In this document: positions 4,644 to 46,300 of the stretch, piece after piece
How the letters are laid out: the number at the start of each line of letters is the position of its first letter
Numbering within the stretch: position 1 is the stretch's first letter
NCBI GenBank assembly: GCA_951406725.2
Contig: OX597830.1
Span: 49,662,001-49,726,000 of the forward strand
Direction: 5' to 3'
Length of the DNA: 64,000 bases
Origin: Octopus vulgaris
Taxonomy: Eukaryota
Translations under genes and position numbers: made by a program
Notes under the pieces: model-generated
Database searches by the model: none
What the model was told of the DNA's origin: nothing
Seen by the model: only the letters and a program-made list of their open reading frames with translations

Positions 4644-4760
4644 ATCGCCTGAGGAGATACATATAGATCTTCTTATACAGGTATATCGTTAAATAATTTA
4701 ATTTAAACTTTAAATCCTGTATATACGAGGATCTGTATGTATCGAAGCATTTGTAGCGAT
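4644..4760 (+). ncRNA. Type-I hammerhead ribozyme-like motif with very long stem II
   Basis: Stem I ATCGC (4644-4648)/GCGAT (4756-4760). Core CTGAGGA 4649-4655. Stem II 4656-4681/4716-4743, about 26 bp with 2 G-U pairs, 1 mismatch and a 2-nt bulge. GAAG at 4744-4747 (A15.1 to G), short stem III GCA/TGT, predicted GUA cleavage triplet ending at 4755. Confidence 0.7.
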
Positions 4761-5149
4761 TAAAATGCTGCCTAACCGTACGAACTCTTCCTTTTGACTC
4801 TTTTACTTTTTGCTTTTTACCTTTTACATATACAAACATATATGTCTGTATGAGTTAGAGGTTAATAAACCATCTAAGGGATATTAAATACCTGGATGTA
4901 TACCTACTGGGTGTGTACATACGTATTTTAACCAAGTGCTTACTATTGCATGGTAATATTGGAATTGATAACTAGGTATTGATGGGGGCAAATTGTAAAT
5001 TTACCCAGGATTTATAAGGCAAATAAGAAAATGGAGAGGATATAAATCTGACAAACATCAGCCTGTAAGAATTCGATTATATCTATTCATTAAATGATAA
5101 CAAACATGTGTTTAAGTGGTACAAGTAAACGAATGAGATCAGCCAATAA

Positions 5150-6090
5150 ATACGTAAGTCGATATATAGAGAGAGATGAAGGAATAATAATAGATGAGTA
5201 TACAGATGAGTATACAGATACAAATCACTTACGGCCGTTTCTACCATGAGGCCTCAGAATCTTCCAAGTCATTCTCATCACGTCAGTGATACACAAGGAT
5301 GAACAAACATTGGGCAGCGGTTGGGTAATGGTTGAGCCTCAAGGCTTCTTCAGAGAGGATGAATGTTAGGAAACTAACATGTGGGAAATTCAGTTAGGAT
5401 TACAGAGTAGGGTAAATGAGATAAAATAGGTAAAAATAAAAAATAATGTAATATAATAAACATGTTAAGGAAAGGTAAGAACTTCATTTTAAGGTGTTAT
5501 TATAATCCATGCTATTCCACAATGTGGTAAGTAAATATAGTCACTCTCAGGAGTGCGGTTTACATCGTGTTTCCATTATACTGAGGGAAATAGTGAATGT
5601 AGTAAGCTATTTGGTGGTTTTAATGGTATGTTTCCATGCTACAGGGGGTCAGAGATTAGAGGCTAAACGCTATTTAATAGGTATAGCAATATTAAAGGTG
5701 TTGGCCGAAATAACTTAAATTGAACATGTTAGGGGGAAATTAATACATAAATAGATTAATGAAAGAAAAGGAAAAACTGGGGAAAACCTTAGCGTTAATA
5801 TTTGTTACCTATTGGCTGAAAACTAATCCATATACCCTTATGCGTAGTGGGGTGAGTTCAAAGTCAATCCTGCAACCTAATTGGTCAGCTAACATTTAAA
5901 AACAATGGCCATTGCTTCTTACGGTCTTTCGCGACATTTTCCAAATGTAGTGCAATTTCATTGTTTCTTGGTCGTGTCCATTAATCGAAGAACCCTTCAG
6001 CTCAAGCTACATTATAGGTTAGAGTATTCTCGAGGGTCGCATAGTGTTACAGCTTCCATTAAGGATGATTATTTTACAAAGATTTAGATT
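5150..6090 (-). mobile_element. Degenerate Penelope-like element 3' region ending in a hammerhead-bearing pseudo-LTR
   Basis: The minus strand at 5290-5224 reads ATCACTGACG...CTCATGGTA-GAAACGGCCGTA-AGTGAT (palindromic stem III, stem I ATCA/TGAT). Upstream sequence only faintly resembles a PLE RT-endonuclease linker. Confidence 0.5.
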
Positions 6091-6517
6091 CTCCTTGTTT
6101 GTTTGTTTTTTTGCCAGTATTTTTCCTGGTTTTAAATACTTCTCTCATTCGTAAACTTGTTCGAAAAAACGTCGTAAGCCGACGTATGTCATAACTACAA
6201 TTAAGATTTTTAAAATCTTATAATGCACCTGCAAAGTCAGTTGATATAAAACTATTGTGATTGGTTCCTTCCTGGGAACTTGTAAATTCTTTAATAAGAC
6301 AGTTAATGCGGCTTGACACTTAGGCACTGCCCCAGACAGAAAGGAATGGAATTGCAACTTAAATATTAACGAACTTTTATTTATTCAGCTGGAAGCGTTT
6401 TCATATCACTTCTCATAAATATAAAAGTACACGAAATACATAAGATCTTAGTACAAATCAACTACTTTGTTCAATATTCAAAGCCCGTTGCATTATCAAC
6501 ATTATCTCCAGTATCAG

Positions 6518-6610
6518 TACTATTCTTTCTACTCCAGGCACAAGGTCCGAAATATTTGGGGAGGAGGCAGTCGATTAGATCGCAATTGGTACGTAATTTA
6601 TCGATCTCGA
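6518..6610 (-). mobile_element. SINE family B 3' fragment
   Basis: AGGCACAAGG...GTCGATTAGATCG...TGGTACGTAATTTATCGA matches the copies at 12470 and 42011. Confidence 0.7.
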
Positions 6611-6681
6611 TACATGTATGTATATATGTATATGTATATATATATGTATATGTATATATATATGTATTTGTGTAAGTATGT

Positions 6682-6717
<36 letters not shown>

Positions 6718-6923
6718 GGGAAGCTTTATGAAAATAAACAAAAGACGAAGACAGGTGGAATACAAACAAACAATTGTATTAGTATGGCGCTCAGGGATAT
6801 AAATAAAACAAGTCTTTTACGTTTCGAGCCTACGCTCTTCAACAGAAAGATACACAGAAAAGAAACACGGAGAGAAACAGGGGGAGAAAAAAAATGCGTA
6901 CAGAGGCTAGCGAATCAACATGG

Positions 6924-6926
<3 letters not shown>
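6718..6926 (-). mobile_element. Short PLE pseudo-LTR-type element between two (TA)n tracts
   Basis: Bounded by (TA)n on both sides. Carries the minimal hammerhead at 6813-6850 and shares CTGAGCG with the 23335 element. Confidence 0.7.
6813..6850 (-). ncRNA. Minimal type-I hammerhead-like motif (core variant CUGUUGA)
   Basis: TCTTT-CTGTTGA-A-GAGC-gtag-GCTC-GAAA-CG-TA-AAAGA: 5-bp stem I, 4-bp stem II, palindromic ACGU in place of stem III. Confidence 0.7.
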
Positions 6927-6960
<34 letters not shown>

Positions 6961-6964
<4 letters not shown>

Positions 6965-8005
6965 AATTTTTCAAGTACTATTATTAATAATGCTAATAAA
7001 TTTTTGGAAAGAAATAAATTGTTAAGACATTTAGTAAAACAAGGGTATAAATATGGTAAATTGGTTAAAACTTTTAATCGCTGTTTAGGTGGGAAACTTG
7101 AAATTCTAAATAAATATGGGATAATATCTATTCATCAGCTACATATTTGTAAGGATTTGGGAGGTTTACGATTCGAGTTATTTGCTTACTACGTCACCAA
7201 TATTGAGAGAATTGAGGAAGTAGTATTTACGCACTACGTCATTAATTTTTAGTTGGCCCTTTAAATTCTTGGAGATGGAGCTGCGTGTCTGATTAAACAT
7301 GTGGTTATATTTGTAGTTTTATTATATTTTAAACAGTTTTAATTAGCTTTATACATAGCATAATTTATAATCATAGTTAATTACAAGTACTTTTTTAGTT
7401 GCTGTTTAATGAAATTTCACGTTTATATTGGTAACTGGTAATTTAATATTACATCTTGGTGTGGTGATATATGAGTATGTAGTGTTTTATTTTTAACTTT
7501 TGAGAGATGAAGATGTATTTCACTCATAAAAATATTAGTTAAAGTAATTTCAATCGTGTTTGTTTTGTTTTGGAGAGATTTATATTAAGCTTTAACTTTC
7601 ATTATAGAAGTATCTATGGAAGACTGGTGGTATTATTATTTATATGGAATTAAAGATTGGTCGCAATTTAGTATATAATTTAGTTATTGCAGATTACTAT
7701 TAATACCGATACAATGTACATTGGTTTATACGTCTCTTTGTCGTAGTTTTATTAAAGTTAATGTTTAATCCTGACTATATTATTGATTGATTGAAATAAT
7801 GTGGTTATTAAGATTGTAATTTTGTATTATAATACGGAAAAGAGTAGAGATTATAATTTTTGTATGACTTGATATATTTGTCGCTGTTTAGTTACGTATT
7901 CAGGAGTAGTTATAATTTACTTTTTGAATTTATTTATCGATAAGGTTGTACATAGAGTATATGTGTTGAAAGTTGTGATCTCTTTGGTTTGTTTGTTCCA
8001 AAACA
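6961..8005 (+). mobile_element. 5'-truncated Penelope-like element, RT C-terminus plus AT-rich 3' region (possibly Naiad-type)
   Basis: FLERNKLLRHLVKQGYKYGKLVKTFNR...LNKYG resembles the PLE RT thumb (F..R...L...L..QGY....L...F). The ORF ends with no downstream GIY-YIG and starts at a (TA)n tract. The 3' boundary is uncertain. Confidence 0.6.
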
Positions 8006-8010
8006 ATGTA

Positions 8011-8087
8011 TATGCATGCATGCATAGGTACGTACATATATCCATAGGTACATACATACATACATATGTATCTGTGTGTATGTATGG

Positions 8088-8121
<34 letters not shown>

Positions 8122-8257
8122 GTGTATCTTTTTTTAGTACTGTTGACAGCACCGGATTGATAGGTACTGCCCAAGCGTCGAAACCATAATGATATCCGTG
8201 GGGCAGCTGATGATGGAGGTATGTTGGATTGTTGGTATTGCTGTGGAATAGTATTAT

Positions 8258-8317
<60 letters not shown>

Positions 8318-8520
8318 TGTTGTATATGCTTTTGCCACTTACATGCAGTGACGTACAGATGTTTCACTCTCATTTCATTTCTTGATCCGTTTTATATTTT
8401 ATTAAGTCCTATGACTTAATGGTACTGAATGGTACTGCCCAAGTGTCGAAACCATAATGATATCCGTGGGGCACCTGATGATGGAGGTATGTTGGATTGT
8501 TGGTATTGCTGTGGAATAGT

Positions 8521-8569
<49 letters not shown>

Positions 8570-8830
8570 TGTTGTATATGCTTTTGCCACTTACATGCAG
8601 TGACGTACAGATGTTTCACTCTCATTTCATTTCTATTTCCGTTTTATATTTTATTAAGTCCTATGACGATGGATGCATGGTGACATGTGCAGTATTTATA
8701 TGTGCAGTAAATCAGAGCACTTAAGCTGAATACCAGGCAGCTATCATCTGACAAAAGGAAGCACTCGTCATTATCATCCTCATCTATACATACGTGCATG
8801 CATGCATAGGTACGTACATATATCCATAGG

Positions 8831-8861
<31 letters not shown>

Positions 8862-8879
8862 GTATCTGTGTGTCTGTAT

Positions 8880-8937
<58 letters not shown>

Positions 8938-8962
8938 GTATATCTTTGACTTCTTTTTAGTA
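8011..8962. repeat. Local duplication with A-B-B'-C-A' layout
   Basis: 8162-8416 is nearly identical to 8431-8667, including the internal (TA)n. 8011-8140 is repeated at about 8793-8962. Confidence 0.9.
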
Positions 8963-9400
8963 TATCCACGTTAAGATATACAGATTATTCTCTGTCTGCC
9001 CATTCTCTTTCACCTTTTCTCTCTTTCTCTCTCAATCCTTCTCTCTCTTTCTCTTTATGTACGTCTTTTTTTTTGCGCGTGTGTGCAATGAGAGAGAGAA
9101 TAAAAAGGGAGGAGACGAAATGAAATCCATTTCGAAGATAATACGGTTCGTTGTGATGAATGACAATCTCTTGCAATCTCTGTCCATCTTCCAATAAAAC
9201 CATACAAGGAAAAACTACGAAAATGGAAGATGCCTTCAAGGAATGAACAGACGGCGTTATCAGTATTGTGACACAAATGAACCTAGAGCCCCAATTTCAA
9301 AAATGACGGCGTTACTACGGATGATTTCTCACATATATAATGACAGAAATGCTGGAGATCGCATTTGGTTGATTTAAATTATACTGAGTATATCTGCACG

Positions 9401-9437
<37 letters not shown>

Positions 9438-9440
<3 letters not shown>

Positions 9441-9560
9441 AAATGGGACGAGGACGCAAAACATCCAGATAGACGATATAAGAAACACGGACGGGTCATT
9501 GGAAGCCTTTAATCTTCAGTCAAGAACCGGATCATCCTCGTAATTTCGGCTGATGATATT

Positions 9561-9565
<5 letters not shown>
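9438..9565 (-). mobile_element. Solo terminal repeat of the 34334-35241 element family
   Basis: ACAAAATGGGAC...AAAACATCCAGATAGACGATATAAGAAA...GGACGGGTCA...TCTTCAGTCAA matches 34335-34490. Flanked by (TA)n. Confidence 0.85.
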
Positions 9566-9591
<26 letters not shown>

Positions 9592-9759
9592 GACACAAAC
9601 ATATATATAAACATATAAACACACACACAAAAACACACATATATATATATATATATATATGTATATGAATATGTGTGTGTACGTATGTGCGTGCGCGCGA
9701 ATGTGAGGTGTCCTGGGCAAGATTTTGAACTGCGTCCGGGAGTGGAGCCTTGGATCGGG

Positions 9760-10125
9760 AGTTTCAAGAAACACCTCGTGATAAATATTGTTACCTGTTC
9801 TTCTCTGGTCTTGAGTAGCAGCACATGTCAGGGACCCAGCTATGCGTGTTAGGGCTCGCCTAACTATGCATGTGAAGACTGGGATTCTGTGAAATCTGAG
9901 GAAGAACCCTTTATGGTTCAATGGTGTGGAGCGGCTGCATCGATACATTGCGGGGTTCAGATAGCAAGGCAATGTAACTAAGATATCCTGGTCATCCACA
10001 CTATATCCGTCTCTATCACAAATTGTCTTCATCTGGTTTTGTCCTGGTTCCTCCATGGACCGAAGGCGGTCATTGACGTAAATGTGACGTTGATGTTGCA
10101 CAACTCTTCTAAAGTTTAAACTCAT
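9760..10125 (-). mobile_element. Possible degenerate Helitron Pif1-helicase C-terminus
   Basis: ...PVFTCIVRRALTRI...RTGNNIYHEVF weakly resembles the Helitron helicase end (PVFxHGQLYVAxSRV...TxNIVYxEV). Confidence 0.35.
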
Positions 10126-10228
10126 TCAACGCGCAATTCATCCTTAGGGATGGATTGATGGTCATCGTCGCTCAGATGAACAAAGAAGATGATATGAATG
10201 TTTCTCTCTGTCTCTGTCTCTCTCTGTC

Positions 10229-10261
<33 letters not shown>

Positions 10262-10833: not shown

Positions 10834-10873
<40 letters not shown>

Positions 10874-11324: not shown

Positions 11325-11388
<64 letters not shown>

Positions 11389-12269: not shown

Positions 12270-12635
12270 TGATTTCAAAATTTGACACAAGGTCAGCAAT
12301 TTTAGAGAAGCCATGGTGCTTATTTTATCAAGCCCAAAAGGATGAGAGCTAAAGTCGACCTTGGTGTCATTTGAACTCAGAACATACACACGGACAAAAT
12401 GATGCTAAACATTTCGCCCGGAGCGCTAGTGATTCTACCAGCTTGCCGCCTTACAACATTTCAATAATCCTTTTTACCATAGGCACAAGGCCTGAAATTT
12501 TTGAGAAGGGGATCAGTCGATTACATCGAACCCAATCTTTCACTGGTACTTAATTTATCGACCCCGAAAGGATGAAAGGCAAATTCAACCCCGGCGGCAT
12601 TTGAAATCTGAACGTAAAGACAGGCGAAATATACA
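12270..12635 (-). mobile_element. Two tandem SINE family B copies (about 12270-12453 and 12470-12635)
   Basis: Both contain AAGGATGARAG..AAGTCGACC..GGC..ATTTGAA. The first ends CCAGCTTGCCGCCTT. Confidence 0.85.
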
Positions 12636-12693
12636 TTTTAATAATATTCACAATAAATTATATCGAACCAACGTATATAATATTTTTTTAAAA

Positions 12694-13077
12694 TTTTACC
12701 TGTTTCAGTCAATTGATTGTAGCCATGCTGGAGTACTGCCTTTTATTCGAAGAAATCAACCCCTGGACTTATTCTTTGTAAGACTGGTGCCTATGCTATC
12801 GGTCTTTTATGCCGAACCACTAAGTTACAGGGACGTAAACACACCGACATCTGTTGTTAAGCGATGGGGAGGGGGACAAACACAGACACATAAATATATA
12901 TATACATATATACGACGGTCTTCTTTTCAGTTTCCGCCTACCAAATCCACTCACAAGGTTTTGGTCGGGTCGAGGCTATAGCAGAAGACACTTGTCCAAG
13001 GGACCATGCAGCGGGACTGAACCCAGAACCATGTGTTTGGGAAGCAAGCTTCTTATCACACAACCACGCCTGCGCCT
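12694..13077 (-). mobile_element. SINE family A, full length
   Basis: Reverse complement of the 32168 copy, ending ...CCACGCCTGCGCCT. Confidence 0.9.
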
Positions 13078-14009: not shown

Positions 14010-14110
14010 ATATAGAAGGAGCTTCTACAGGACTAGAACTGTTTCATTCAAGAGAAATCTTCAGGAAGAATGAAACAGTTCTAGTCCTGTAGAAGCTCCT
14101 TCTATATAAT
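14007..14110. repeat. Perfect 43-bp inverted repeat with 18-nt loop (fold-back PLE-type terminal repeat)
   Basis: 14007-14049 is the exact reverse complement of 14068-14110. The loop and left arm on the minus strand read CTGAAGA-TTTC-TCTT-GAAT-GAAACAGTT. Confidence 0.95.
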
Positions 14111-14180
14111 AAATTAATTTTACTCTGCTATGTATTGAGTACCTTATTTACTGTGGTTAACCCCGAATCAACCCGGGACC

Positions 14181-14257: not shown

Positions 14258-14330
14258 GTAATATGCGACAAGTTTCCGAGTTAGATGAAGAGTAAATGGT
14301 ACTATAACCCGCCCACACAAACATATATAC

Positions 14331-14403
14331 TTCGTTTTTGTATCTGGTTTGCAAGATTCTTGATGTTAATTTGGGTGTTGAAGCAATTTTGTTGCGTCAT
14401 TTT
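14331..14403 (+). mobile_element. Fragment of the terminal repeat found at 18574-18895 and 60190-60275
   Basis: TTCGTTTTTGTATCTGGTTTGCAAGATTCTT...GTGTTGAAGCA is the reverse complement of 18840-18895. Confidence 0.75.
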
Positions 14404-18573: not shown

Positions 18574-18895
18574 ATATTCTGTTGTGTCTTGGGAGCGTCA
18601 TTTTCTTTGTGCGCCTTATTATGTAACAGACTCACAGGTAAAATTTCCACGTTTTTCTTATTTTTATTGTCCTAACATTTTCGTTGCGTCTTGCAACATT
18701 TTTAATAGTTTTTATTTTTGCAAGACGCAACGAAAATTTTAGGAAAATAAAAATAAGAAAAATGTGGAAATTTTACCGGTGAGTGTGTTACATAATAAGG
18801 CACAAAAAGAAAATGACTCTCCCTAGACACAACAGAATATGCTTCAACACACGAACTCACATAAAGAATCTTGCAAACCAAATCCAAAAACGAAA
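18574..18895. repeat. Inverted repeat with about 123-bp arms (18574-18696 / 18718-18840) and 21-nt spacer; PLE-associated terminal repeat
   Basis: Arms are complementary at roughly 90% by eye. The same sequence abuts the PLE RT at 60190. Confidence 0.9.
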
Positions 18896-23334: not shown

Positions 23335-23546
23335 ATATGTATGCGCGCACGTGTATCGTTGGCGATTTTTTTTCCTCCGTCTTCCCTTCCTTGGATCTTT
23401 CCTTTTTCTATGTTTCTGACGAAGAGCTCCGCTCGAAACGTTAAATCCTCCTTTTTTATTTCCTTTCCTGAGCGTCCAATAACGCTATACTTGTTCCACG
23501 TCCTCGCGTTCTTGTTTTTTCTCTTTGTATTTTCATGTTGGGATTA

Positions 23547-24354: not shown

Positions 24355-24389
24355 GTTTCCGACGAAGAGCTATGCTCGAAACGTAAAGC
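24355..24389 (+). ncRNA. Minimal hammerhead-like motif (core variant CCGACGA) within a short element at about 24230-24495
   Basis: GTTT-CCGACGA-A-GAGC-tat-GCTC-GAAA-CG-TA-AAGC. Confidence 0.7.
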
Positions 24390-24881: not shown

Positions 24882-25662
24882 TTTTACTTGTCTTAGTTAC
24901 TGTATTGCGGCCATGTTTGGACACACACCTGAAGGGTTTTAGCTAAGCGAATCTACTCCAATACTCCTTTATGTTTTAAAGCCCACTACATATTCTATCG
25001 GTCCTTTTGCTGAAACGCTAAGTTACGGTACTGCGAATTATACAAACTTGCACCGCTTTATCGGTGGTCAATTGCTGGTCGGGATAAACACACACACACG
25101 TCTTTTTATATAAACACACACACATGTCTTTTACTCTTTTACTTGTTTCAGTCATTTGACTGCGGCCATGCTGGAACACCGCCTTTAGTCGGGCAAATCG
25201 ACACCGGGACTTATTCTTTGTAAGCCTAGTACTTATTCTATCGGTCTTTTTTACCGAACCACTAAGATACGGGGACGTAAACACACCAGCATCGGTTGTC
25301 AAGCGATGTTGGGGAGACAAATACAGACACACAAACATGTACACATACATACATACATATACATATATACGACGGGTATTTTTCAGTTTCCACCTACCAA
25401 ATCCACTCACAAGGCTTTGGTCGGCCCGAGGCTATAGTAGAAGACACTTGCCCAAGGTGCCACGCAGTGGGACTGAACCTGGAACCATGTGGTTGGTAAA
25501 CAAGCTACTTACCACACAGTCACTCATTTTTTCAGCTTACCTCTACCAAATCCATTCACAAAGCTTTGATCGGCCCGAGGCTACAGCAGGAGACACTTGC
25601 ACACGGCGTCACACAGCTAAGCCAGAATGAAGTCTTTAGGAGGCAAAATTCTTACCACACTG
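24882..25662 (-). mobile_element. Young SINE A (25127-25525) nested in an older SINE A (24882-25126 plus 25526-25662)
   Basis: A degenerate tail half precedes the well-conserved copy and a degenerate head half follows it. The split falls in the internal (CA)n region. Confidence 0.85.
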
Positions 25663-28602: not shown

Positions 28603-29460
28603 ATGGAAAAATGTCAAGGTAGGAAATGTTAAAATAATTTTATAAAAAACATTTCAGTACCGGTTTCATTCATTGAGACTTCTTTAACTGTAAGCATCGA
28701 AAACAATTAAATTTTGGAAAAATTAAATGAAAAGTATTTTTAAAAGAATATTTGCATATTTACAAGGGGCAGTTTCCTTGCTTCTGCCTGTCTCTGTCTC
28801 TCTTGTTTACTCTTGTGGGTTGGAGGTCGTTGTAAGTTCTTGGCAGAGAAGATGGAGAAGAAAAAGAATGAGGAGGAGGAGGAGGAGAAGGAGAAGAATA
28901 ATGCGGGAGTGCTATGAGAGTAGTAGGATGTTAAATCGTCAAGTGCCCTGAAAGTAATTCGTTGTGCATGGTAGTAGTGATTGAATTCTTGAGATATCTC
29001 TTTTATTATATTTGCATAGGTGTTATTCTAAACAGCAGTAGTAGTATAGTAAAGAAGGAGGTGGCGGAGAGGAAGAAGACGGAGAAGAACAAGGAGAAAG
29101 AGAAGAAGAGAGAATGATAAGGGAATGCGGGATGGTATGATAGTAGTAGGATGTTAAATGGTCAAGTGCCCTGAAAGTGACTTGTTGTGTATTATAGTAG
29201 TGAAAGGGACTGTTTTTAATGAATTCTTGGGTATCTCTTGAATGTATCATTTTTAATATATGCGTGTGTGTCATTCTAAGGCCGTGATGGATATGTTGTT
29301 TGTTGTAGATGCGTTCAAAAGGGGTTTGTATCTTGTAATAAAGAGAGTCTCTTTACTAATTCGTTGGCTGCAGGTTGTATCGTCTCTGAATTATTAGAGG
29401 TAAGACCATAGGGGTCTACTTCTAGCATAATAGATGTCCACTTAGTGGTCATCCCACTTA
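28603..29460 (-). mobile_element. Penelope-like element 3' end: GIY-YIG C-terminus, duplicated 3' region and pseudo-LTR with degenerate hammerhead
   Basis: The minus strand at 29369-29313 reads SQRISKETLFITRYKPLLN (E..FI...KP.LN). About 28893-29000 is repeated at 29110-29238. 28690-28655 reads CAG-TTAAAGA-AGTCTCAATGAAT-GAAACCGGTA-CTG. (TA)n lies at both ends. Confidence 0.7.
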
Positions 29461-30685: not shown

Positions 30686-30688
<3 letters not shown>

Positions 30689-31100
30689 CGCAGGAGTGGC
30701 TGTGTGGTAAGTAGCTTGCTAACCAACCACATGGTTCTGGGTTCAGTCCCACTGCGTGGCATCTTGAGCAAGTGTCTTCTGCTATAGCCCCGGGCCGACC
30801 AATACCATGTGAGTGGATTTGGTAGACGGAAACTGAAAGAAGCCTGTCGTATATATATATATGTTTGTGTGCTTGTTTGTGTGTCTGTGTTTGTCCCCCT
30901 AGCATTGCTTGACAACCGATGCTCTAGTGTTCATGTCCCCGTTACTTAGCGGTTCGGCAAAAGAGACCGATAGAATAAGTACTGGGCTTACAAAAAGAAT
31001 AAGTCCCGGGGTCGAGTCGCTCGATTAAAGGCGGTGCTCCAGCATGGCCGCAGTCAAATGACTGAAAAAAGTAAAAGAGTAAAGAGTAAAGAGTAAAGAG
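30686..31100 (+). mobile_element. SINE family A, full-length young copy
   Basis: tRNA-like head (TGGCTGTGTGG A box, GGTTCAGTCCC B box), CORE-like TGGCATCTTGAGCAAGTGTCTT, internal microsatellite and (TAAAGAG)n tail. Flanked by (TA)n. Confidence 0.95.
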
Positions 31101-31534
31101 ATAGTATATATATATATATATATATATATATAAGAGGAAAATTATCATAAACTGAAGTATGAATTATTAATTCTGATGTATCTTCTACGGTTGAAGTTAT
31201 TTGGCAATCATCATTGGATATTCCAAGTGCATTTGGATGTCTAAGCGCAATGGATCAGCAGGCAAACGCTTTATTGCGTCCTGTTTCTAAGATATTAGGT
31301 CTTTGAAAGAGAATGCAATGTCGAAGCGTACATAGGAGCTAATAATTTATTCTTCTTAATTCATCTTAATGTTTTCCCTATATATGCTCTGAACATCATG
31401 ACTCTACAAACTAAAGTTTTAGACAAACCACAATACTGGAAGCTGAATGGGTAATGATAATCTACGTTAATCTCTAACTGATACAGTAGTAGTCGTACAC
31501 CTAACAGCACACACCAGATGCATACAGGTAATAT

Positions 31535-31916
31535 AGGCGTGGATGTGTAGTAAGAAGCTGGATTCAGTCGTACTGCGTGACATCTTGGGTAAGTGTCTTC
31601 TACTATAGCTTCGAGCCGACCTAAGCCTTGTAAGTGGATTTCGTAGGCGGAAACTGAAAAATCTCGTCATGTGTGTGTGTGTGTGTGTGTGTTTGTATCT
31701 GTGTCTTTGTTTCTGTGTTTCTCCCCCACCATCGTTTGACAACCGATGCTGGTGTGTTTACATCCCCGTAACTTAGCGGTTTGACAAAATAGACGGCTAG
31801 GATATGTACTAGGCTTACAAAGAATAAGTCATGAATGCTGGCTTATTCGACTAAGACACCCTTGAAAGCGGTGCTCCAGAATGGATGTAGTCAAATGATT
31901 GAAATCAGTTAAAAAA
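31535..31916 (+). mobile_element. SINE family A, diverged
   Basis: Colinear with the 30686 copy apart from a short deletion in the head. Confidence 0.9.
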
Positions 31917-32167
31917 TATATATATTGAGCTAATATTGAGATTAGTTTAACATCGGCGTCATTTGTACTCAGAGCTCTGGCAGCTGGAATACGTGCCGCA
32001 TGGTATTCTGCTCACCGCTCTGGAAACTATGTCACCCCGCTGAATGAATTTAACGAACAACTCAGAATTTTCTTCTCTTCTTCATTCATTCCATTAGTCC
32101 TTAGCTTATTCGTCTCAATTCTCACCATTGACCCACATGTGTTACATTTTATTTTCGACATGTTAGT

Positions 32168-32577
32168 AGGCGCAGGAGTGGCTGTGTGGTAAGTAGCTTG
32201 CTAACCAACCACATGGTTCCGGGTTCAGTCCCACTGCGTGGCATCTTGGGCAAGTGTCTTCTGCTATAGCCCCGGGCCAACCAATGCCTTGTGCGTGGAT
32301 TTGGTAGACGGAAACTGAAAGAAACCTGTCGTATATATGTATATATATATATGTGTGTGTGTGTGGGTTTGTGTGTCTGTGTTTGTCCCCCTAGCATTGC
32401 TTGACAACCGATGCTGGTGTGTTTACGTCCCCGTCACCTAGCGGTTCGGCAAAAGAGACCGATAGAATAAGTACTGGGCTTACAAAGAATTAGTCCCGGG
32501 GTCGATTTGATCGACTAAAGGCGGTGCTCCAGCATGGCCGCAGTCAAATGAGTGAAACAAGTAAAAGAGTAAAAGAG
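32168..32577 (+). mobile_element. SINE family A, full-length young copy
   Basis: Near-identical to 30686-31100. Tail GTAAAAGAGTAAAAGAG. Confidence 0.95.
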
Positions 32578-32611
32578 TATGATATTATGCGAAAGAAACA
32601 TTCTCTCAAAC

Positions 32612-32723
32612 AATGAAAAACAAAGTCGACCCCGGCGGCATTTGAACTCAGAACGTAAAGGGGGACGAAATCCTGCTAGTCCTTTTGCTCGGCGTGCTAA
32701 CGTTTCTACCTGCTCGCCGTCCT
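32612..32723 (-). mobile_element. SINE family B head
   Basis: AAAGTCGACCCCGGCGGCATTTGAACTCAGAACGTA...GGCGTGCTAACGTTTCTACCTGCTCGCCG. Confidence 0.85.
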
Positions 32724-33662
32724 AATGTTCTTTCAAATATTAGAATTCTTTCATTTGATTATTTGTCGAGCGTGGGTGATATATAATGGACTGGTGTCTT
32801 CATAACGTCTATAATGGTCTTCTGTACATAATGGCGTAGTATATTCGCGTCACACTGGTTTTGTATGGTTAGGTCATTCACAATACATTATGTATAAATA
32901 GGTTTTTAAAATACTTGCAATATTTAGACTTCAGAAATATTTTCAATGGCAACATTATAGAGATGTTACCAGTACTTAAGCAAAACAGATGTAAATAGTA
33001 GACTCATAAAGGTCATTTATATCTTGTCCTCAAATACCAGGAAATGCGTTTCCGGCCACATCTTCCAGATATAAAAAGAGAAAGAAAGCAATTGTATAAT
33101 TTTTACACAGAAATTTTCGAGTTGAACAATGAAGTGGTGATATACTTACCAGTTGCTTTATGAATAAGGCGGCATTTTAGAGATAATTAGTTACCGATGT
33201 ACACGTGGGGTACCTGGATTTAGTAGCAGTTCAGATGGCTCCGCGATTTATATTAGGTTGCTTTCTCTGTATGTTGTGCGTTCAACTCTACTGTCGTCTT
33301 TTGGTCTATTTCTTTCGAAACACTTTATATATGGCCACGGATCACCTATTTTTGTGGAATTTGAATGAAAGAATATGAGAAGGTCACTTGCAATAAATTA
33401 TCATCGATTATAATCAAATATTTATTACTTCTCTCTTTAAAACTGAAAATATTAAAGGTTTGTGGTCTTTGGAAGCCCAGGCTAATTCAGTATCATATTT
33501 CATGTGGAGCATTTAGATACAGTTAAACACACAGACACACACACAGTCACACACACACACATAAGCACACATCCACACACTTGTGTATGCATATCGGTCT
33601 CTCTACCTGCCTATCCTGTCTGTCTGTATATATGTATATACACGCACACACACACACACACA

Positions 33663-34333: not shown

Positions 34334-35241
34334 TACAAAATGGTACAAGAACGCAAAACATCCGGATAACCAGGTGATACAAAAAGGGACAAAACATCCA
34401 GATAGACGATATAAAGAAAACAAGGACGGGTCAGTGGAAGTTTTCTATCTTCAGTCAACAACCAGATTATCCTCGCAATTTCGACTGATTATTCTTGAGA
34501 TTGCTCCAATCTGGCCAAAATCTTGAACAACTCTATTTCTATCAGCCCTTTCTATTAGCCCTTTCATGCTTATTCGTTCAATCCACTCTTCGTTCTTTCG
34601 TTCCCTCTCTCTCACATTTCTTTGCCTTCTCTTCATGCTCACTTTCCCTCCACTTTTTACGTCACTGTGTCCCTGTCATTTTTTCTCGCCCCTCCTTAAC
34701 TCTTCTATCCCTCTGCTTCTACTTCTCTCACTTCTCTTCCCACGTGACCGATCGATCAACCTGCCCTTTCTTTCTTGGTCTGACCGTGATCCGTGCAACA
34801 TCGATATTCTTCTCTGTGTTTGTGAAAATTTCCTTTCTCTGCCGTAAGGCTTCATTTCCACACGCGCCATCTTAATCCAATTCGTTCTTAGTCGAAATAC
34901 ACCTGTTGTTATGTCCTGTTATTATTTTTATTGTATTTTTAATTGTATTTATATTTGTGTAACATTGTCCGTTTTTTCCGTCCTTGTTTTCGTATACATT
35001 CGCTGCTTTCTTCCAAGGAATCTAATGCTCTTAGCTTAGTTTTTCCTTGAGGCTGGCCAGATTGGTGCAATCTCGAGAATAATCAGCCGAAATTGCGAGG
35101 ATAATCTGGTTGTTCACTGAAGATAGAAAACTTCGAATGACCCGTCCTTGTTTTCTTTATATCGTCTATCTGGATGTTTTGTTGTCCCTTTTTGTATCAC
35201 CTAGTTATCTGAATGTTTTGTGTTCTTGTCCCATTTTGTAT
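34334..35241. mobile_element. Non-coding element of about 0.9 kb with about 185-bp terminal inverted repeats, inserted in (TA)n
   Basis: 34334-34517 is the reverse complement of 35054-35241 with few mismatches. The interior is pyrimidine-rich. A solo arm lies at 9438. Confidence 0.9.
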
Positions 35242-36278
35242 GTTATATATATATATATATATGCATATACAGAAAAATAAAGTGAAAGAGAGAGGGATTG
35301 AGAAAGAGAAACCGATAGTTTATATGTGTCTGTATGAGTGTGTGTATTTTGGTGACCAGTTTTTCTAGTAGAAGGTTCTCGACCATAACTACAAGTCTCT
35401 CGTCAGACAGCTTTCTCTCATTGTTTTCTATATCCTTTGTGGTCTTTCAAAATACAGAATCTTTAGGTTAACTAACAACTTGTAATAGAAATCTTTTGTT
35501 GCTATTAATGTTTCTTGAAATAATGGTCCGATTCATTCATAGAATTGAAATTTATCTGCAAATAGAACATTCTTCACCTGAAATTGAAGCAAAAAATTAC
35601 ATTTCGTATCATTGTTTTCCTAACAATATTTTTGTAATATTTCTGTTATTATGTTTTAATGTTAATTCTTTTCAAGTAATTTCCCGTTTGATAATTTATT
35701 GATTAAATGGCAACAATGAATGATATTGCATTGGTAGACACCATTGAAAGTTTGTATATCAACAGTTTTTGATTCTAGATCAATAGATTAATAACATTTG
35801 TGCAGCTATCAGCGATTTATATTGAATGAAAACAAGTAAAATAATAATTATTGAAAGATCCACAATCTGTCCAGTCATCGAAAAATATATTTTCCTGTCC
35901 TGTACTCAGGCCACTCCTGATAATAACAATTATATAATTCCAACTCTATCATAAAACAATAGATATACCTCTTCATATGAGAATATACGCTATTTTTGTG
36001 GACACTTTTCGGGATGGCAAAGTACAGAACAGAGTTAATAACAATGGGTATGAGAACATTTACGTCTATAAATTCATTTTTAATGGATATTCTTTTTATG
36101 GTTATTTACAATTTTCTATTTACTTATGAAATGAAAGTATGGCTTTCTACTGCATATGTATGGGTAGATGTGTTGAAAGAGTCGTGCATGTTCAGCTAAT
36201 AGAGTGATGACATTTGAGTCTACAAGTGATAATTATTACGGAATACTGTTTGTAAAAGCATCAAAATAGTATCCAGTA

Positions 36279-39801: not shown

Positions 39802-39886
<85 letters not shown>

Positions 39887-40249: not shown

Positions 40250-40318
<69 letters not shown>

Positions 40319-40489: not shown

Positions 40490-40640
40490 CGTAGGGAAAG
40501 CCATTTACGGTTGAGTGGACTGGATCAAGATGAATTTAAGTGATTTGCTCAGGAACACAACCCAGCGCCGATCTGGGAGTCAAAACCGCGAACAACCTAT
40601 CATAGGTGCAAAACTCTAAATACTCGGCAACACGCTTTCA
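40490..40640 (-). mobile_element. SINE family C-related head and core, degenerate
   Basis: GAGTGGACTGGATCAAGATGAATTTAAGTGATTTGCTCAGGAACACAAC. Confidence 0.7.
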
Positions 40641-40779
40641 CACACACACACGCGCGCGGGCACACACACACACACACCTGATCACACACACATGGACACG
40701 CACATGTGTGCATATGTATATAAATGTCTGTGTGTGTGTACATATACGTGTGTATATATATATAATATCAATAAGTATG

Positions 40780-40823
<44 letters not shown>

Positions 40824-40837
40824 TATGCATATTTGGG

Positions 40838-40990
40838 CACAGGACGTCACCAACTGTGTATACAACATGAAGTACGAAAACAAACGCGATAAATATGCAA
40901 AGAACGAGAGAAAAAATGGAAAACGGGACAGGTAACACTAAGGATGCCCCTTCATCAGTCGGCCGTTTATCTACTACTCGTCATTTCTAC
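40838..40990 (-). mobile_element. Short PLE-type terminal-repeat element containing CTGATGAAGGG
   Basis: The minus strand reads GAAATGACGAGTAGTAGATAAACGGCCGA-CTGATGA-AGGGG, then a T-rich tail, next to a (TA)n tract. Confidence 0.45.
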
Positions 40991-40994
40991 TACT

Positions 40995-41457
40995 CCTCAA
41001 TTCATGAACTGAGCTTCAAGGACCGTCGCTGAACAATTGACAAACTTGTCGATATGATTGGTGTGTCATGGAGCGCCTTCCAACAAATTTTGAGCGAAAA
41101 ATTGTGAATGAAAAGAGTTGTAGCAAAATTTGTGCGCCTCTGCTCGCGGAAGATCAAAAGTAGTTACGAGTTGATACGTATTGTGGATTGAAAGAAGAGC
41201 TAGAAATTGATCTGGCCCTTTTTTTTTTTTCGATGGTCATCACTGGTGACGAAAGCTGGTGATACGGAATTTGCAGATGTTCAAGAGGTGAAGAGAACAA
41301 AAAGCGTCGGTGGCGTCAAAGATATCACTTCGTGGAAAACGCGTCTGGACGGATGCATTGCTTCAAATGTAGCATAGTTTGAAGGCAATAGAATTGTAAA
41401 CATGTAAAACCTAAGGGAATAAAATAATATTGCAAAATTCCTGTTTCTTTTCGCTTA

Positions 41458-41458
<1 letters not shown>
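40995..41458 (+). mobile_element. Internally deleted mariner transposase relic
   Basis: DRR*TIDKLVDMIGVSWSAFQQILSEKL*MKRVVAKFV, VITGDESW and a C-terminal ..FEGN. Confidence 0.85.
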
Positions 41459-41500
<42 letters not shown>

Positions 41501-41630
41501 GAGAGAGAGAGAATTCATAGATGAGAGTTCCAGATATTCTCTGTCGAGAATACACTTGGTAGTGCTCAATAGATTTAAACTTGAGCAAGTATGGAAGTAA
41601 ATGTAAGGATAAGCAAGTTAGACAGGTCAA

Positions 41631-42007
41631 TATATAAAGTATATTATATACATGAAATACAAAAAAAAATGTCTATATGTATATATATATAAATGTCCGA
41701 CTCATGCAGGCAGAATACAAATGATATAGAGAATTAAAGAGGTGAAGGAAATGAATTATAAATCCAACAGCTGTTTCAGAGGGCTCGCGGGTCCGTAATA
41801 ATGCTTGTAGATTGATTTCATCATAGGACGAGACGAGCTTACGTCTTCGTGGAAGAGATCTTGCATTTTAGATGTTAAAGGAGAGAAGTTCAAAGAAGTT
41901 CATCCCTTGAATTCTCTAAATCGTTTGTAATATGTGTAAAGTGGACCTCTGTATATGTATACATATGGACATTTATTGTATTTCGTGCATTTTATATACT
42001 TTATATA
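41631..42007. mobile_element. Diverged inverted repeat (about 41631-41746 / 41899-42007) enclosing a degenerate hammerhead-like motif
   Basis: Arms are complementary by eye. The minus strand at 41828-41763 reads TCC-T-ATGATGA...GAAACAGCTGTT-GGA. Confidence 0.65.
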
Positions 42008-42010
42008 TAC

Positions 42011-42207
42011 TTTTTAATCTAGGCACAAAGGCCAAATTTTTTAGGGAGGGAGCCAGTCGATTACATCGACCTCAGCACACAACTGGTGCTTAATTTATCG
42101 ACCCCAAAAAGATGAAAGTCAAAGTCAACCTCGGTAGAAAGAATTTGAACTCGGAACGTAAAGACAAACGAAATACTCGCGTCCTAACGTTTCTTCCAAT
42201 TCGCCGC
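42011..42207 (-). mobile_element. SINE family B
   Basis: AGGCACAAAGG..GTCGATTACATCGACC..AAAGTCAACCTCGG..TTTGAACTCGGAACGTA. Confidence 0.85.
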
Positions 42208-42260
42208 TATACATATACTTTATATATTAATTTGTCTAATCTAAGTATCCCTAGATTTAT

Positions 42261-42291
<31 letters not shown>

Positions 42292-42417
42292 CATACATAC
42301 ACACACACATACATACATACATACATACATACATACACACATACATACATACATACATACATACATACATACATACATACATACATACATACATACATAC
42401 AGGCTGGCTGATACAGG

Positions 42418-42516
<99 letters not shown>

Positions 42517-42831
42517 TACCTTTCAAAGCTTTTCCGGTAAATTACAAAATTGCATGCTGCTCATTGCTGAACTATACAATTTGATTTTCTGCAATGAAAC
42601 ACCAGCCTATATTCTACAGCTGACTTTTCTCATAGTCATTGCGCTAAGCATTATCAGCTAACAATGTGTATATTCCTGCTTACCAGTAAAGTCTTATCGA
42701 CCTGTTAATAAGCCATGTTTATACACGAATTTAGTGCAACAAATTCTTCCTAATATCGTCTAATACACACATAGAAATATTTATAGATACGGGACATATA
42801 GGATCTTAGAACCGTATGTATCCGTATACAC

Positions 42832-42875
<44 letters not shown>

Positions 42876-42896
42876 TTGCTTGCTTGTATGTATGTT

Positions 42897-42949
<53 letters not shown>

Positions 42950-43075
42950 CACTTATTAATATAGCTCATTTGGAGCACTACAATTCCAGTCTGTTTTATA
43001 TTTTTAGTATTGTTATTACTAGCGATCTCAAGATATAACTTTGTATTTTGTATTTTATATATACACACATACACT

Positions 43076-43110
<35 letters not shown>

Positions 43111-43520
43111 GCACGCACACACACACATATGTTCGGTATGCATGTATGTATGTATGTGTGTAGGTGTATTGCCGTCTCTGTAAACTGTCGTAGTGGCAGA
43201 TTTATACAAGATTTATGCAAGACTCACCGCCAGCCCGTACATATCTTGGCATTTGTCGTAAAAGATTATTTGCGCGCGCGTGTGTGCATGTGTGTGTGTG
43301 TGTATGTGTGTGTGTGTTTGTTTGTGTGTGTGTGAGTCTTATAATTTATGGAATACAAATATTTCCATCTTTAGCGGGGTCCTTGTCATGTCTGTTTTCC
43401 CTGATGCATAATGCAAATCACATGTAATCTCCGTAGTATTCTTGTAATACAATAATACTACTCATGCACACACGCACATACATGTACACCCTGCTACACA
43501 CAAACACACATAGATAAACA

Positions 43521-43573
<53 letters not shown>

Positions 43574-43635
43574 GGAGATGCTGTCAGAAGGCCGGCTAAC
43601 CAGCTAGCTAGCCTGTTAGGTAAACATATAGGCAA

Positions 43636-43702
<67 letters not shown>

Positions 43703-43739
43703 CATACATACATACATACATACATAGATACATAGATAA

Positions 43740-43818
<79 letters not shown>

Positions 43819-43862
43819 CATACATACATACATCTGTCTGTCTATCTGTCTATCTATTTCTC

Positions 43863-43910
<48 letters not shown>

Positions 43911-43919
43911 AATCAATCA

Positions 43920-43973
<54 letters not shown>

Positions 43974-43978
43974 TTATC

Positions 43979-44031
<53 letters not shown>

Positions 44032-44040
44032 TGATAGATT

Positions 44041-44108
<68 letters not shown>

Positions 44109-44157
44109 GAGAAATAGATAGACAGATAGACAGACAGATATATATATGTATATAGAT

Positions 44158-44222
<65 letters not shown>

Positions 44223-44318
44223 CAGATACATACACACACATACATACATACATACATACACACACACATACATACATACATACATACATACATACATACA
44301 TACATACATACATACATA
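43636..44318. repeat. (ATAG)n/(ATAC)n tetranucleotide array with two strand switches
   Basis: (ATAG)n to about 43818, (CTAT)n at about 43833-43979, then (ATAG)n again. Confidence 0.95.
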
Positions 44319-44733
44319 AGCATCCGTTTTGCTACCTGAACATTATACATGACCTGGCATATGAAACTGAGTAATGCAATTGTGTTACTTATTCATTTGC
44401 TCTAATTAATACACATGTGTGTGTGTTCATGTGCTTGTGTCGATGCGTGTGTGCACGTGTGAGTACATGTGTGCATGATGCGCAAAGAGAATACACTGAA
44501 ATTTTTACTATTAGGCTATGATGAATTTTTTAGAATTTAATCAATAGAAAATGTTAGCTTTAGGTACAAAATTCACACGAATCTGGTAGGAATATCTTCT
44601 GTCTTGGTTATTTTATAATGCAGCTTGCATCTCCTCCAATTACTGTAAATATTCCTTATACAGACATGACAAGATTTGATACTTCTCTTGCTACCAGAGC
44701 GCAAATTGTGATCTAACATGAAACTACTTTAGA

Positions 44734-45360
44734 GTTAGTTAGTTAGTTAGTTAGTTAGTCAGTTAATTTGGCTCAAAAGCAAATAGCAAGGCCATGTAGG
44801 GGGACATGGAGTTAAGTACAGGGTGGTGTTCATGTAAAGAGTTCAGGCCACTTGAGGTCCAGGGAGGCTTTGAACAAAGCGGTCGTCGGCATCTTCACCA
44901 TCTCGTCTGGCAGCTTGTTCCACGGATCCGCAACCCGGACGGAGAAAGCTCCTCTCCTTCGATTGAGATGAAATCGTCGCAGGTAGAGCTTTTCGGAATG
45001 ACCCCGCAGCCGACGCTCCGGAGCAGGAGTGAAGAACAGCTCTTTCGAGAGGTTACACTTCCCGCTTATGATGTTGTGGGCGAGAATGAGATCACCACGG
45101 CGGCGGCGTTTTTCAAGAGAATAAAGGTCGAGCGTCCTCAGCCTTTCTTCGTAGGACAAATTTTTGAGACCATGAACCATGCGGGTAGCCAGCCTCTGGA
45201 CTCTTCCGAGATGCTGTATGTCTTTGAGGAGATAAGGAGAAGAGGCTTGAATCCCATACTCCAATATGGGTCTCACCAGCGTGACATAGAGTGGTAGGAA
45301 TATGGCTGCTGTGAGCATTCCGAATGACCGTCGAATCAAAAACAGAATTCCGCGCGCTTG
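44734..45360 (-). mobile_element. 5'-truncated CR1-clade LINE with uninterrupted ORF2 C-terminus and (TAAC)n tail
   Basis: LYVTLVRPILEY...RVQRLATRMVHGLKNLSYEERLRTLDLYSLEKRRRRGDLI...LRGH...FSVRVADPWNKLP. Stop at 44830-44832, short 3' UTR with a CCATGT/ACATGG stem, (GTTA)n at 44734-44765. Confidence 0.95.
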
Positions 45361-45499
45361 AGAGGTTGTGTTCAGAGATGAATATTCGCTTGAATTATAT
45401 AGCGGTTCTTTAGACACCAAGACGGTGTCTCTAGAGGAATAGACCAAGGCATTTGCAGAGAACTAAAGAAAATTTCGTATGTGTGTTGTATCGTCATAC

Positions 45500-46300
45500 T
45501 TATATACACACACATAGATTAAAGTAAAAGAAATATCTAATTTAGACTAAATAATATAAACATACACAGTCTCTTACAGCTGTTTCTAGAATAGCCAGAC
45601 ATATGCAGCATCATATTGAGAAAGGATTCTATCTGAGTAAGAGAGATGTAAAATGAGAGTATATCACCAATCGATGATAGTATATTCCAATTTGTGAAAT
45701 TAGGGGAAAATCAGAGTAAAATAGGTATGAGTTATGTAGTATTCCGATCGGATAAATAATAGAGTTATAGGTCGAATCCATTTGCAGTTTGAAATGAGAA
45801 TGCTCAATGATGATCCATGGCAAGGAACAATGGAAGCTCTGGGAACGTGAGATTACTAATATCTACATCAAAACACGAATCCTAAAATAGACGCAGGCAC
45901 TCCTATAGATCAGCATAAAAGGTTAAGGAAAGAAAGAGAATGTGAAGTGAGAGAGAAAGAGAGTATGGAGAAAAGAGAAGAATAAAGTGAAGAAGCGGTA
46001 CGGGGATTTAGGTGAGCGGCAAGGTAAATAGAAAGGAGATATGAGGTTGTGAGTACTCAAGCTCATACAGGTAGTGTTACGGCTGACAGGCGAAGGACTT
46101 TTAAGTGATTACTGTGTTTTGATGGATCTGATAAACACGATGTCACATGTTGAGTTGATGACACCAAAGTGTTCCAGATTCTCAGAATCTTGATGATGTC
46201 AAATTTACGGCTGGATCTAGATGCAATAAAGGCAAAAATACGGTAAATCCCCTATGGTCGGCCACTAGGTGAGGAAAACCTTGTGGAGATCGTAATCGCA
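45500..46300 (-). mobile_element. Probable old PLE 3' relic
   Basis: Minus-strand GAAACAGCTGTAAGAGA at about 45586-45570 is the 3' half of a hammerhead with palindromic ACAGCTGT. Same layout as 5150-6090. Confidence 0.4.

Follow-up and report, generated by a model that had tools for sequence, protein, structure and literature searches.

Nine type-I hammerhead motifs in a 64-kb window

We analyzed a 64-kb stretch of the Octopus vulgaris genome (contig OX597830.1, positions 49662001-49726000; called the window for simplicity) in which a first-pass annotation had noticed about eight type-I hammerhead ribozyme motifs from unrelated short elements, mostly in (TA)n tracts and supposedly mobilized by Penelope-like elements (PLEs). 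The genome comprises 2.8 Gb, and repeats within the window were mapped by masked self-BLAST. The words described were present at all nine coordinates. We consider it very likely that these nine motifs are mostly decayed minimal type-I hammerheads near the 3' ends of repeats that PLE enzymes pasted into (TA)n, and the same span contains a second, rewired form of the motif that ends a Naiad element.

A strict type-I descriptor allowing one core mismatch matched the window three times (6813, 23412 and 24355, all palindromic), compared to a mean of 0.33 matches (palindromic: 0.1) in 30 dinucleotide shuffles. With two core mismatches allowed, the eight window matches were at chance level (shuffles: mean 4.7, maximum 10); the other six sites were recognized as hammerheads because of their homology to repeat families, not by pattern. 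Rfam yielded no match on the window at the gathering score, and the 150 listed of 347 matches at E ≤ 10 were driven by microsatellites and contained no hammerhead family.

The minimal hammerhead at 23412..23446 (+), which lies in an element of ~200 bp whose end abuts (TA)n, has 4-bp stems and a GUU site and is the only one of the nine listed copies with the canonical core and all stems. In each of the remaining eight, the core is changed, a stem is broken or a part is missing. The minimal hammerhead at 24355..24389 (+) aligns to the 23412 family and carries U4C, a change found also in 3/9 sampled copies of that family, and the one at 6813..6850 (-), within a young ~210-bp element (~6716-6925), has the A6U core CUGUUGA. 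Stem II and GAAACGU are common to these three. The hammerhead at 4644..4760 (+), in a repeat at ~4501-4851, combines a very long stem II with a near-palindromic stem III, and its A15.1 is changed to G. At 5226..5357 (-), in a repeat at ~4825-5909, the stem II region comprises ~105 nt with one unpaired base on each side, stem I is weakened by a U-U mismatch, and the true core CUGAAGA is located at 5353-5347 (-), ~60 nt upstream of the limit first assigned. A decayed hammerhead with long stem II at 41763..41853 (-), in a repeat at ~41514-42008 with an inverted arm, reads ACGAAGA at its core (41850-41844, -), i.e. with two core changes. The old repeat at 45524..45836 (-) also contains a long-stem-II hammerhead, of which the first core is deleted while GAAA, the palindrome and the 3' strand of stem I persist at 45570-45586 (-). 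These last three sites share one architecture. The U3-A8 hammerhead at 28655..28690 (-), part of the 3' repeat of an autonomous PLE family, is decayed by G5A and a mismatch in stem II. Finally, the motif at 14034-14064 (-) is the hairpin center of a young, hammerhead-derived and near-perfect fold-back element in (TA)n (14016..14175, -) and has no stem I. The fold-back has spread as one unit, with 14 further near-identical copies, all in (TA)n; its sequence inverts at 4 nt of microhomology located at the core of the hammerhead, and its unfolded parent was found at two other genome loci.

The motifs were thus real, whereas several of their limits had to be corrected: the cores proposed at 5224 and 41763 fall inside long stems II, since the true cores lie upstream, the core at 45570 is deleted and the site at 14034 is a hairpin center. 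Because of the shared stem II with GAAACGU and the shared long-stem-II architecture, the nine copies represent about five lineages rather than eight unrelated elements.

Family alignments and genome-wide abundance

Eight sites (24355 was not queried) served as genome queries, and the 14-30 best copies were aligned for each family, named here after the coordinate first assigned. At first look we obtained at least 485 candidates for the 4644 family, 259 for 5224, 1236 for 6813, 972 for 23412, 1152 for 28655, 797 for 41763, 241 for the 14034 fold-back and 232 for 45570. The majority reads of the 4644, 5224, 23412, 28655, 41763 and 45570 families are full hammerheads: 4644 with CUGAGGA, a stem II of ~17 + 9 bp and ACAUUUGU; 23412 with CUGACGA, a 4-bp stem II, ACGU and a GUU site; 28655 with UUGAAAA (10/15 copies) and ACCGGU; and 5224, 41763 and 45570 with CUGA(A/U)GA, a long stem II with a single unpaired base on either side, and a palindrome of 8 nt. 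CUGANGA was kept in 16/20, 14/20, 12/15 and 8/14 aligned copies of the 4644, 5224, 41763 and 45570 families, respectively. The 6813 family reads CUGUUGA in 20/20 copies and shows 96-98% identity among its best 40 matches; in the 14034 fold-back family stems I and II do not pair. The family majorities therefore bear out the proposal that stems I and II differ between families while the cores persist.

The families show fixed 3' ends next to (TA)n and variable 5' ends. (TA)3 was present within 32 nt of the 3' end in 23/29, 17/20, 15/15, 14/15 and 9/18 anchored copies of five families (background 13%; the 5224 and 41763 families were outside this count), but only in 3/9 copies of the 45570 family. 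The description "mostly in (TA)n" consequently applies to the 3' ends of most counted families, with 45570 as the exception. In the 4644 family, an inverted partner copy stands beside 5/40 matches.

To place the window in its genomic context, 80 regions of 10 kb at round coordinates on 25 contigs (800 kb) were sampled. They contained 23 intact type-I motifs compared to 0-2 in each of ten shuffles, which agrees with the expectation that motif frequency exceeds that of shuffled sequence. By core, these were 10 CUGANGA, 2 U3-A8, 4 U4C and 7 A6U; the last two core types were added to the descriptor after seeing the window, and the same descriptor was applied to the shuffles. A homology count gave 63 motifs (none in three shuffles), reduced from 68 by removing the five matches of cluster F31 (window 55103-55296), which was discarded as a false family. 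Extrapolated to the genome, ~80,000 intact and ~220,000 recognizable type-I motifs are expected, i.e. one in every 35 and 13 kb, respectively. The earlier figure of one motif per 8 kb matches the window (nine in 64 kb) but exceeds both genomic densities. We do not trust the apparent twofold excess in the window (P 0.025), since the families of the window itself were the source of the library; the window has at most ~2x the average. Nor are motif clusters special to it, since a 6-kb region at another locus (L194) contains about eight hammerhead-like motifs from six or more families. At four further loci (L005, L008, L029 and L136) different hammerhead families adjoin in the same (TA)n tract, some of them tail to tail.

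Across all loci the descriptor produced 174 matches in 33 clusters, of which 28 were kept (clusters 11, 19, 21, 31 and 32 were dropped). Among the ~28 distinct families, positions 3-8 pair as G-C in 24 and as U-A in four, and the palindrome proposed for stem III is perfect in 22. Since the descriptor required pairing, this pattern is to be read as diversity and not as independent covariation. Compensation independent of the descriptor was found in the U3-A8 core of the homology-defined 28655 family, in the 10.1-11.1 pair of this family, which is A-U in the old form and G-C in the young one, and in the homology-defined 5224, 41763 and 45570 families, whose stems differ yet pair.

At the family level the nine motifs are members of the known class of minimal hammerheads (min-HHRs) of PLEs. 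They show its core order, paired and compensating stems I and II and a palindromic stem III that is unstable and suits dimers, with the 6813 family departing at A6. The type-I layout, the palindrome, the extra base before stem II, the U3-A8 variant, the mostly solo occurrence and the many consensus families per genome are all features of min-HHRs (PMC4209133). Unlike in that study, the octopus sample contains ~12 canonical intact motifs per Mb (10 in 0.8 Mb), compared to a genome-wide total of ~9,000 in Xenopus tropicalis, counted with another descriptor, and a family-wide A6U, which does not appear in the accessible part of PMC4209133. On A6U hammerheads our literature search returned only a twister paper; Lunse et al. 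2017, which was outside the search, may list A6U and U4C. With the PLE hammerheads of the Hydra clade, one family of which comes from octopus, the window families share the (TA)n target, a stem II flanked on both sides by one unpaired base and a palindromic stem III of 5-10 nt (PMC8557442 File S2), whereas no window family resembles the listed Hydra-1_oBim motif by eye. We had considered the unpaired base flanking stem II a new feature and rejected this because it is present in File S2. Long palindromes, (TA)n targets and U3-A8 are, like these unpaired bases, already in print (Cervera 2014, PMC4209133; Craig 2021, PMC8557442).

A tandem Penelope-like element is the parent of the 28655 family

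In 7/15 loci of the 28655 family, including the window copy, reverse transcriptase (RT) and endonuclease (EN) sequence lies upstream of the hammerhead. In the window this is a C-terminal remnant of a PLE RT-EN open reading frame (ORF) at 29295..29414 (-), 627 nt upstream of the hammerhead and 72% identical to an intact ORF at another locus (L181). The 28655 copy is what truncation has left of an autonomous PLE. Homologues of the family's ORF are RT plus GIY-YIG proteins, and it has 16,972 candidates in the genome, many of them identical 784-aa copies. The young, intact 4.42-kb parent at L181 (2713-6236, -), also found at L182-L190, forms a head-to-tail array with a period of 4,423 nt and carries a U3-A8 hammerhead ~90 nt from its 3' end; inverted partner copies were seen as well. 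Its 784-aa ORF contains the RT (RVT_1, E 3.5e-8) followed by GIY-YIG (E 3.8e-4, below the cut-off), connected by a CX4CX2C linker of the CX2-5CxxC pattern. Accordingly, the label "non-autonomous" does not hold for the 28655 family.

The parent is not a single-ORF element. An upstream 411-aa ORF1, without a Pfam match above the cut-off, overlaps the RT-EN ORF in the -1 frame, and U-UUU-UUA occurs within this overlap in 11/11 junctions found, with no methionine in the RT-EN frame ahead of the first conserved motif. F-L-D/E is present near the ends of 2/3 ORF1 homologues, which is consistent with a conserved frameshift site. Contigs of four presumed-RNA runs, which do not show strand, ends or level, cover the autonomous element, and one of them bridges the ORF1/ORF2 overlap unspliced. 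The order of RT and GIY-YIG, the linker, the head-to-tail arrangement and the 3' hammerhead are those of C-terminal EN+ PLEs of the Neptune/Nematis type; the overlapping ORF1 in the -1 frame at U-UUU-UUA differs from them, although a figure legend allows for a frameshifted ORF1 (PMC8557442).

A second young PLE family was seen at L375-L378. It is arranged in 4.6-kb tandems, its ORF of 1,311-1,312 aa has GIY-YIG at the C-terminus, and in its hammerhead-like motif at the 3' end C replaces A9. ORFs reading through the 5224, 41763 and 45570 cores were dropped as candidates, with no PLE protein match upstream, and the translated majority read of the 5224 family revealed no GIY-YIG pattern.

Predicted rewired hammerheads, one family at the end of octopus Naiads

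Five rewired copies, none fully intact and all missed in the first-pass annotation, lie within the span of the nine motifs. The first, at 8135..8229 (+), belongs to family R1; its stems II and III are cut to 3 bp each. It forms the 3' end of a 5'-truncated Naiad at 6975..8260 (+), which consists of a C-terminal RT remnant (~6975-7150) and a 3' untranslated region (UTR) broken by a microsatellite and abuts (TA)n. A second R1 copy at 8426..8497 (+), likewise at the Naiad tail and the product of a local 252-bp duplication, is devoid of the 5' strand of stem II. Family R2 is represented by a full-length copy at 35041..35140 (+), with stem I broken next to the core and within a repeat (~34556-35245) that ends at (TA)n, by a copy without the 5' strand of stem II at 34447..34517 (-) and by a 3' half at 9496..9554 (-). 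Up to ~670 nt upstream of R2 copies we found low-complexity sequence and no ORF.

The rewired chain begins with the 5' strand of stem II, the 5' strand of an extra helix, and the 3' strand of stem III joined to NUH and the 3' strand of stem I; it ends with the 3' strand of stem II joined to GAAA and the 5' strand of stem III, the 3' strand of the extra helix, and the 5' strand of stem I joined to CUGANGA. Three families with unrelated helices have this same order: R1 (1,758 candidates), R2 (3,549 candidates) and R3 (four copies seen). In all three, the conserved partner of the 3' strand of stem II lies at the 5' end of the motif. The helices are 84-97% paired in the aligned copies of R1 (n = 23, 13 intact) and R2 (n = 30, 14 intact). 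The rewired descriptor alone is weak, with 10 matches (six in R2/R3) compared to 0-4 in eight shuffles; the 800-kb sample contained ten rewired copies, namely eight of R2, two of R3 and none of R1.

Covariation was determined for R2 using 11 of 13 homologues from all loci (two partial ones were left out; six had first been found by the descriptor). Paired cells amounted to 92.8% compared to at most 46% with slid partners. Seven pairs had changed on both sides compared to 3.1 in shuffled sets (1/500), and the covariation score was 0.205 compared to 0.129 (0/500), values that relatedness can inflate. It is stem I and the extra helix that contain the double-sided changes; within R2 we found no compensatory changes in stems II and III, which differ only between families. 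Backed by this covariation and by its place in curated Naiads, the rewired motif is a predicted ribozyme, a non-circularly permuted monomer with multiple pseudoknots that would cut itself.

By eye, the RT end and the 3' UTR of the window element at 6975-8260 are near-identical to the published octopus Naiad consensi Naiad_Obim and Naiad_Ovul, which also target (TA)n (PMC8557442). Naiad_Ovul and the record preceding it (Naiad_Obim by file order) end in R1 sequence (PMC8557442 File S5, by eye), so that R1 combines identity to the 3' end of curated Naiads with a C-terminal RT upstream. The same paper states that Naiads lack a canonical hammerhead and flags only "HHR_core" and "HHR_half_core" strings, the latter for Naiad_Ovul; a four-helix rewired fold is not described in its accessible parts. 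The 3' ends of Naiad_Smim, Naiad-3_Nbra and Naiad_Hpol (by eye; names by record order, the records preceding Naiad_Lpol, Naiad_Hcon and Naiad_Asuum) read as type-CSG hammerheads that are complete, with perfect pairing in all three stems and an additional helix; the two others of the five ends shown, Naiad-3_Dst and Naiad_Esco, gave no clean fold by eye. A presumed Naiad RT at L187 turned out to be a C-terminal-EN element instead.

Type-SGC and type-CSG hammerheads (Eckert et al. 2023, PMC10085705) have in common with R1-R3 the reversed cyclic block order, multiple pseudoknots and an extra helix joining the outer strands. In R1-R3, however, the break in the chain separates CUGANGA from the 5' strand of stem II and falls within a block that was assumed to be unsplittable, and the main text of that study links none of its examples, two of them type-CSG, to retroelements. 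By its strand order, the octopus form reads as the type-CSG wiring opened between CUGANGA and stem II. We favor, with reasonable though not high confidence, the interpretation that Naiads carry an active hammerhead as a non-circular permutation, which would be closed (type-CSG) in nematode and spider and opened in octopus, without the A9-G10.1 link. The octopus form would have a chain starting at stem II and ending on CUGANGA, a 5-bp stem III and the ability to cut as a monomer. With tens of thousands of genomic copies, it would probably rank among the most abundant non-circular permutations known in natural RNAs. Our literature search, which covered open papers (subscription journals, figures and the supplements of Eckert and Cervera excepted), found none describing a rewired Naiad hammerhead.

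Origin and possible function of the motifs

The explanation we prefer for the type-I motifs, decayed PLE hammerheads inserted into (TA)n, draws on their membership in repeats, the family-level hammerheads, the variable 5' ends opposite fixed TA-abutting 3' ends and the autonomous tandem parent of the 28655 family. In a transcript of such a tandem parent, two hammerheads would pair via the palindromic stem III; in predicted homodimers the palindromes pair between molecules in 10/10 cases (no shuffled control). The element's own protein probably assists pairing or cutting, and slow cutting would then shorten the multi-unit RNA. Solo copies would arise when reverse transcription, starting at the 3' end, stops early; scattered and lacking a partner, they would decay as dead by-products. 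Core positions do show such decay, at 4.3%. The same process may have scattered the rewired hammerheads R1 and R2. Published properties of the class are compatible with such a scheme: min-HHRs occur as thousands of solo copies per genome, include the U3-A8 variant, do not cleave as monomers and cleave weakly as dimers (PMC4209133; review PMC6765202), and the hammerhead of a lizard PLE required the protein of that element for cleavage (PMC11167929).

Several observations weigh against this explanation. In the young autonomous family, none of the 12 resolved 5' junctions (8 + 4; 9/17 regions in one set gave no match) falls within 100 nt of the predicted cut, and 5' ends within 5 nt of the cut were seen in only 1/18 sampled copies of the 6813 family and 0/11 of the 23412 family. 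The most abundant family (17/63 sampled motifs) has lost A6 in 13/13 readable copies; as the young fold-back family moreover has no hammerhead able to fold, spread does not need a good ribozyme. An A6C hammerhead is reported to retain low activity (PMC3088659), and mutants of the lizard hammerhead still inserted in vitro (PMC11167929). Lastly, a search for PLE coding sequence upstream of the other seven families tested, with two ORF types as queries, gave no true match. For want of a coding partner, mobilization by PLEs, as originally proposed, is for these seven of the eight tested families deduced from PLE-type anatomy and TA-abutting 3' ends, and some of them may be non-autonomous. Where copies of the short families are longer, their 5' extensions consist of low-complexity, UTR-like sequence.

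The same observations lend some weight to a different view, which we regard as possible but clearly less probable: the hammerhead fold is a passenger or a protein-binding landmark near the priming site, and its cleavage is dispensable for spread. The loss of A6 in the commonest family, U4C in 3/9 copies of the 23412 family, the at least 241 candidates of a young fold-back family without stem I, insertion 5' ends that ignore the cut site and the in vitro insertion of hammerhead mutants (PMC11167929) would all be expected from it. It accounts less well for the C3-G8 to U3-A8 swap, which recurs in 4/28 family representatives, and for GAAA and NUH, which persist across unrelated stems and two topologies as selection for catalysis predicts.

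It is doubtful that 6813, 23412 and 24355 are retrozyme-like non-autonomous elements replicating via self-cleaved circular RNA. The short families resemble animal non-LTR (long terminal repeat) retrozymes as short non-coding units with a type-I hammerhead and a proposed PLE origin (PMC7229834; 10.64898/2026.07.22.740005): they are ~200 bp long, share a common 5' start in many copies and have no ORF upstream in the longest copies, and a preprint derives animal retrozymes from the pseudo-LTRs (pLTRs) of PLEs (10.64898/2026.07.22.740005). Retrozymes are, however, defined as tandem arrays, whereas the window copies are solo or inverted and no tandem hammerhead array exists among the nine; the 5' starts do not match the cut site, and the longer copies run into UTR-like sequence as truncated PLEs do.

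That some copies have been adopted by the host to cut pre-mRNA or regulate genes is very unlikely, and the earlier suggestion that copies cut host pre-mRNA finds no support here. The tens of thousands of structurally intact motifs extrapolated above would provide ample material, and core positions decay slightly less than their surroundings (4.3%, 50/1163, compared to 6.6%, 1011/15293, nearby; p=0.0015), but this small excess is explained by differences between source subfamilies. Only one of the nine window copies is unaltered, in vitro no cleavage was seen for solo min-HHRs (PMC4209133), and a published PLE hammerhead did not cut without the protein of its element (PMC11167929). No host exon was detected in the window plus 40 kb on each side, a weak test in which 120/160 non-repeat ORFs were scanned. 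Chance matches in AT-rich repetitive DNA, which would fit the two-mismatch counts (8 compared to 4.7) and the lack of a hammerhead at the Rfam gathering score, are practically excluded by the 23 motifs against 0-2 in the genome sample and were already refuted by the alignments, in which family majorities restore perfect cores and stems.

As decayed PLE hammerheads, the listed motifs add an octopus-like genome, with ~80,000 intact and ~220,000 recognizable copies by extrapolation, to a known story, and U3-A8, U4C, A6U and the fold-back constitute a natural mutational series on whether hammerhead cleavage is needed for PLE transposition. Of greater consequence is the rewired motif. Should it prove to cleave, Naiads would have been reported as free of hammerheads only because of the descriptors used, a rare ribozyme topology with two known examples would acquire a biological context, and the core of the hammerhead would have been shown to function without the A9-G10.1 link.

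Further features of the window

The window has a GC content of 26-44% and 158 tandem-repeat entries, and repeats in the other genome loci fetched match at least 46% of it. ORF fragments resembling an RT of the long interspersed nuclear element (LINE) type were observed at 3664-4104 (+), 44830-45462 (-) and 52257-53147 (-), the last with a Pfam zf-RVT match (E 3e-6) and the other two without a Pfam match. The scan of non-repeat ORFs in the window and 40 kb on each side revealed Tc3 and a DDE transposase, with Myb/SANT-like and DUF5714 below the cut-off. An imperfect long inverted repeat at 18574-18893, with related pieces at 14320-14398 and 60186-60273, is presumably similar to a miniature inverted-repeat transposable element (MITE). 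Abundant short interspersed repeats without hammerhead words, which we take to be similar to short interspersed nuclear elements (SINEs), are located at 883-1211, 12314-13077, 25144-25660, 30687-32728, 51408-51830 and 61155-63261. At 43636-44232 a tetranucleotide tract flips to its reverse complement, resulting in a hairpin of ~180 bp.

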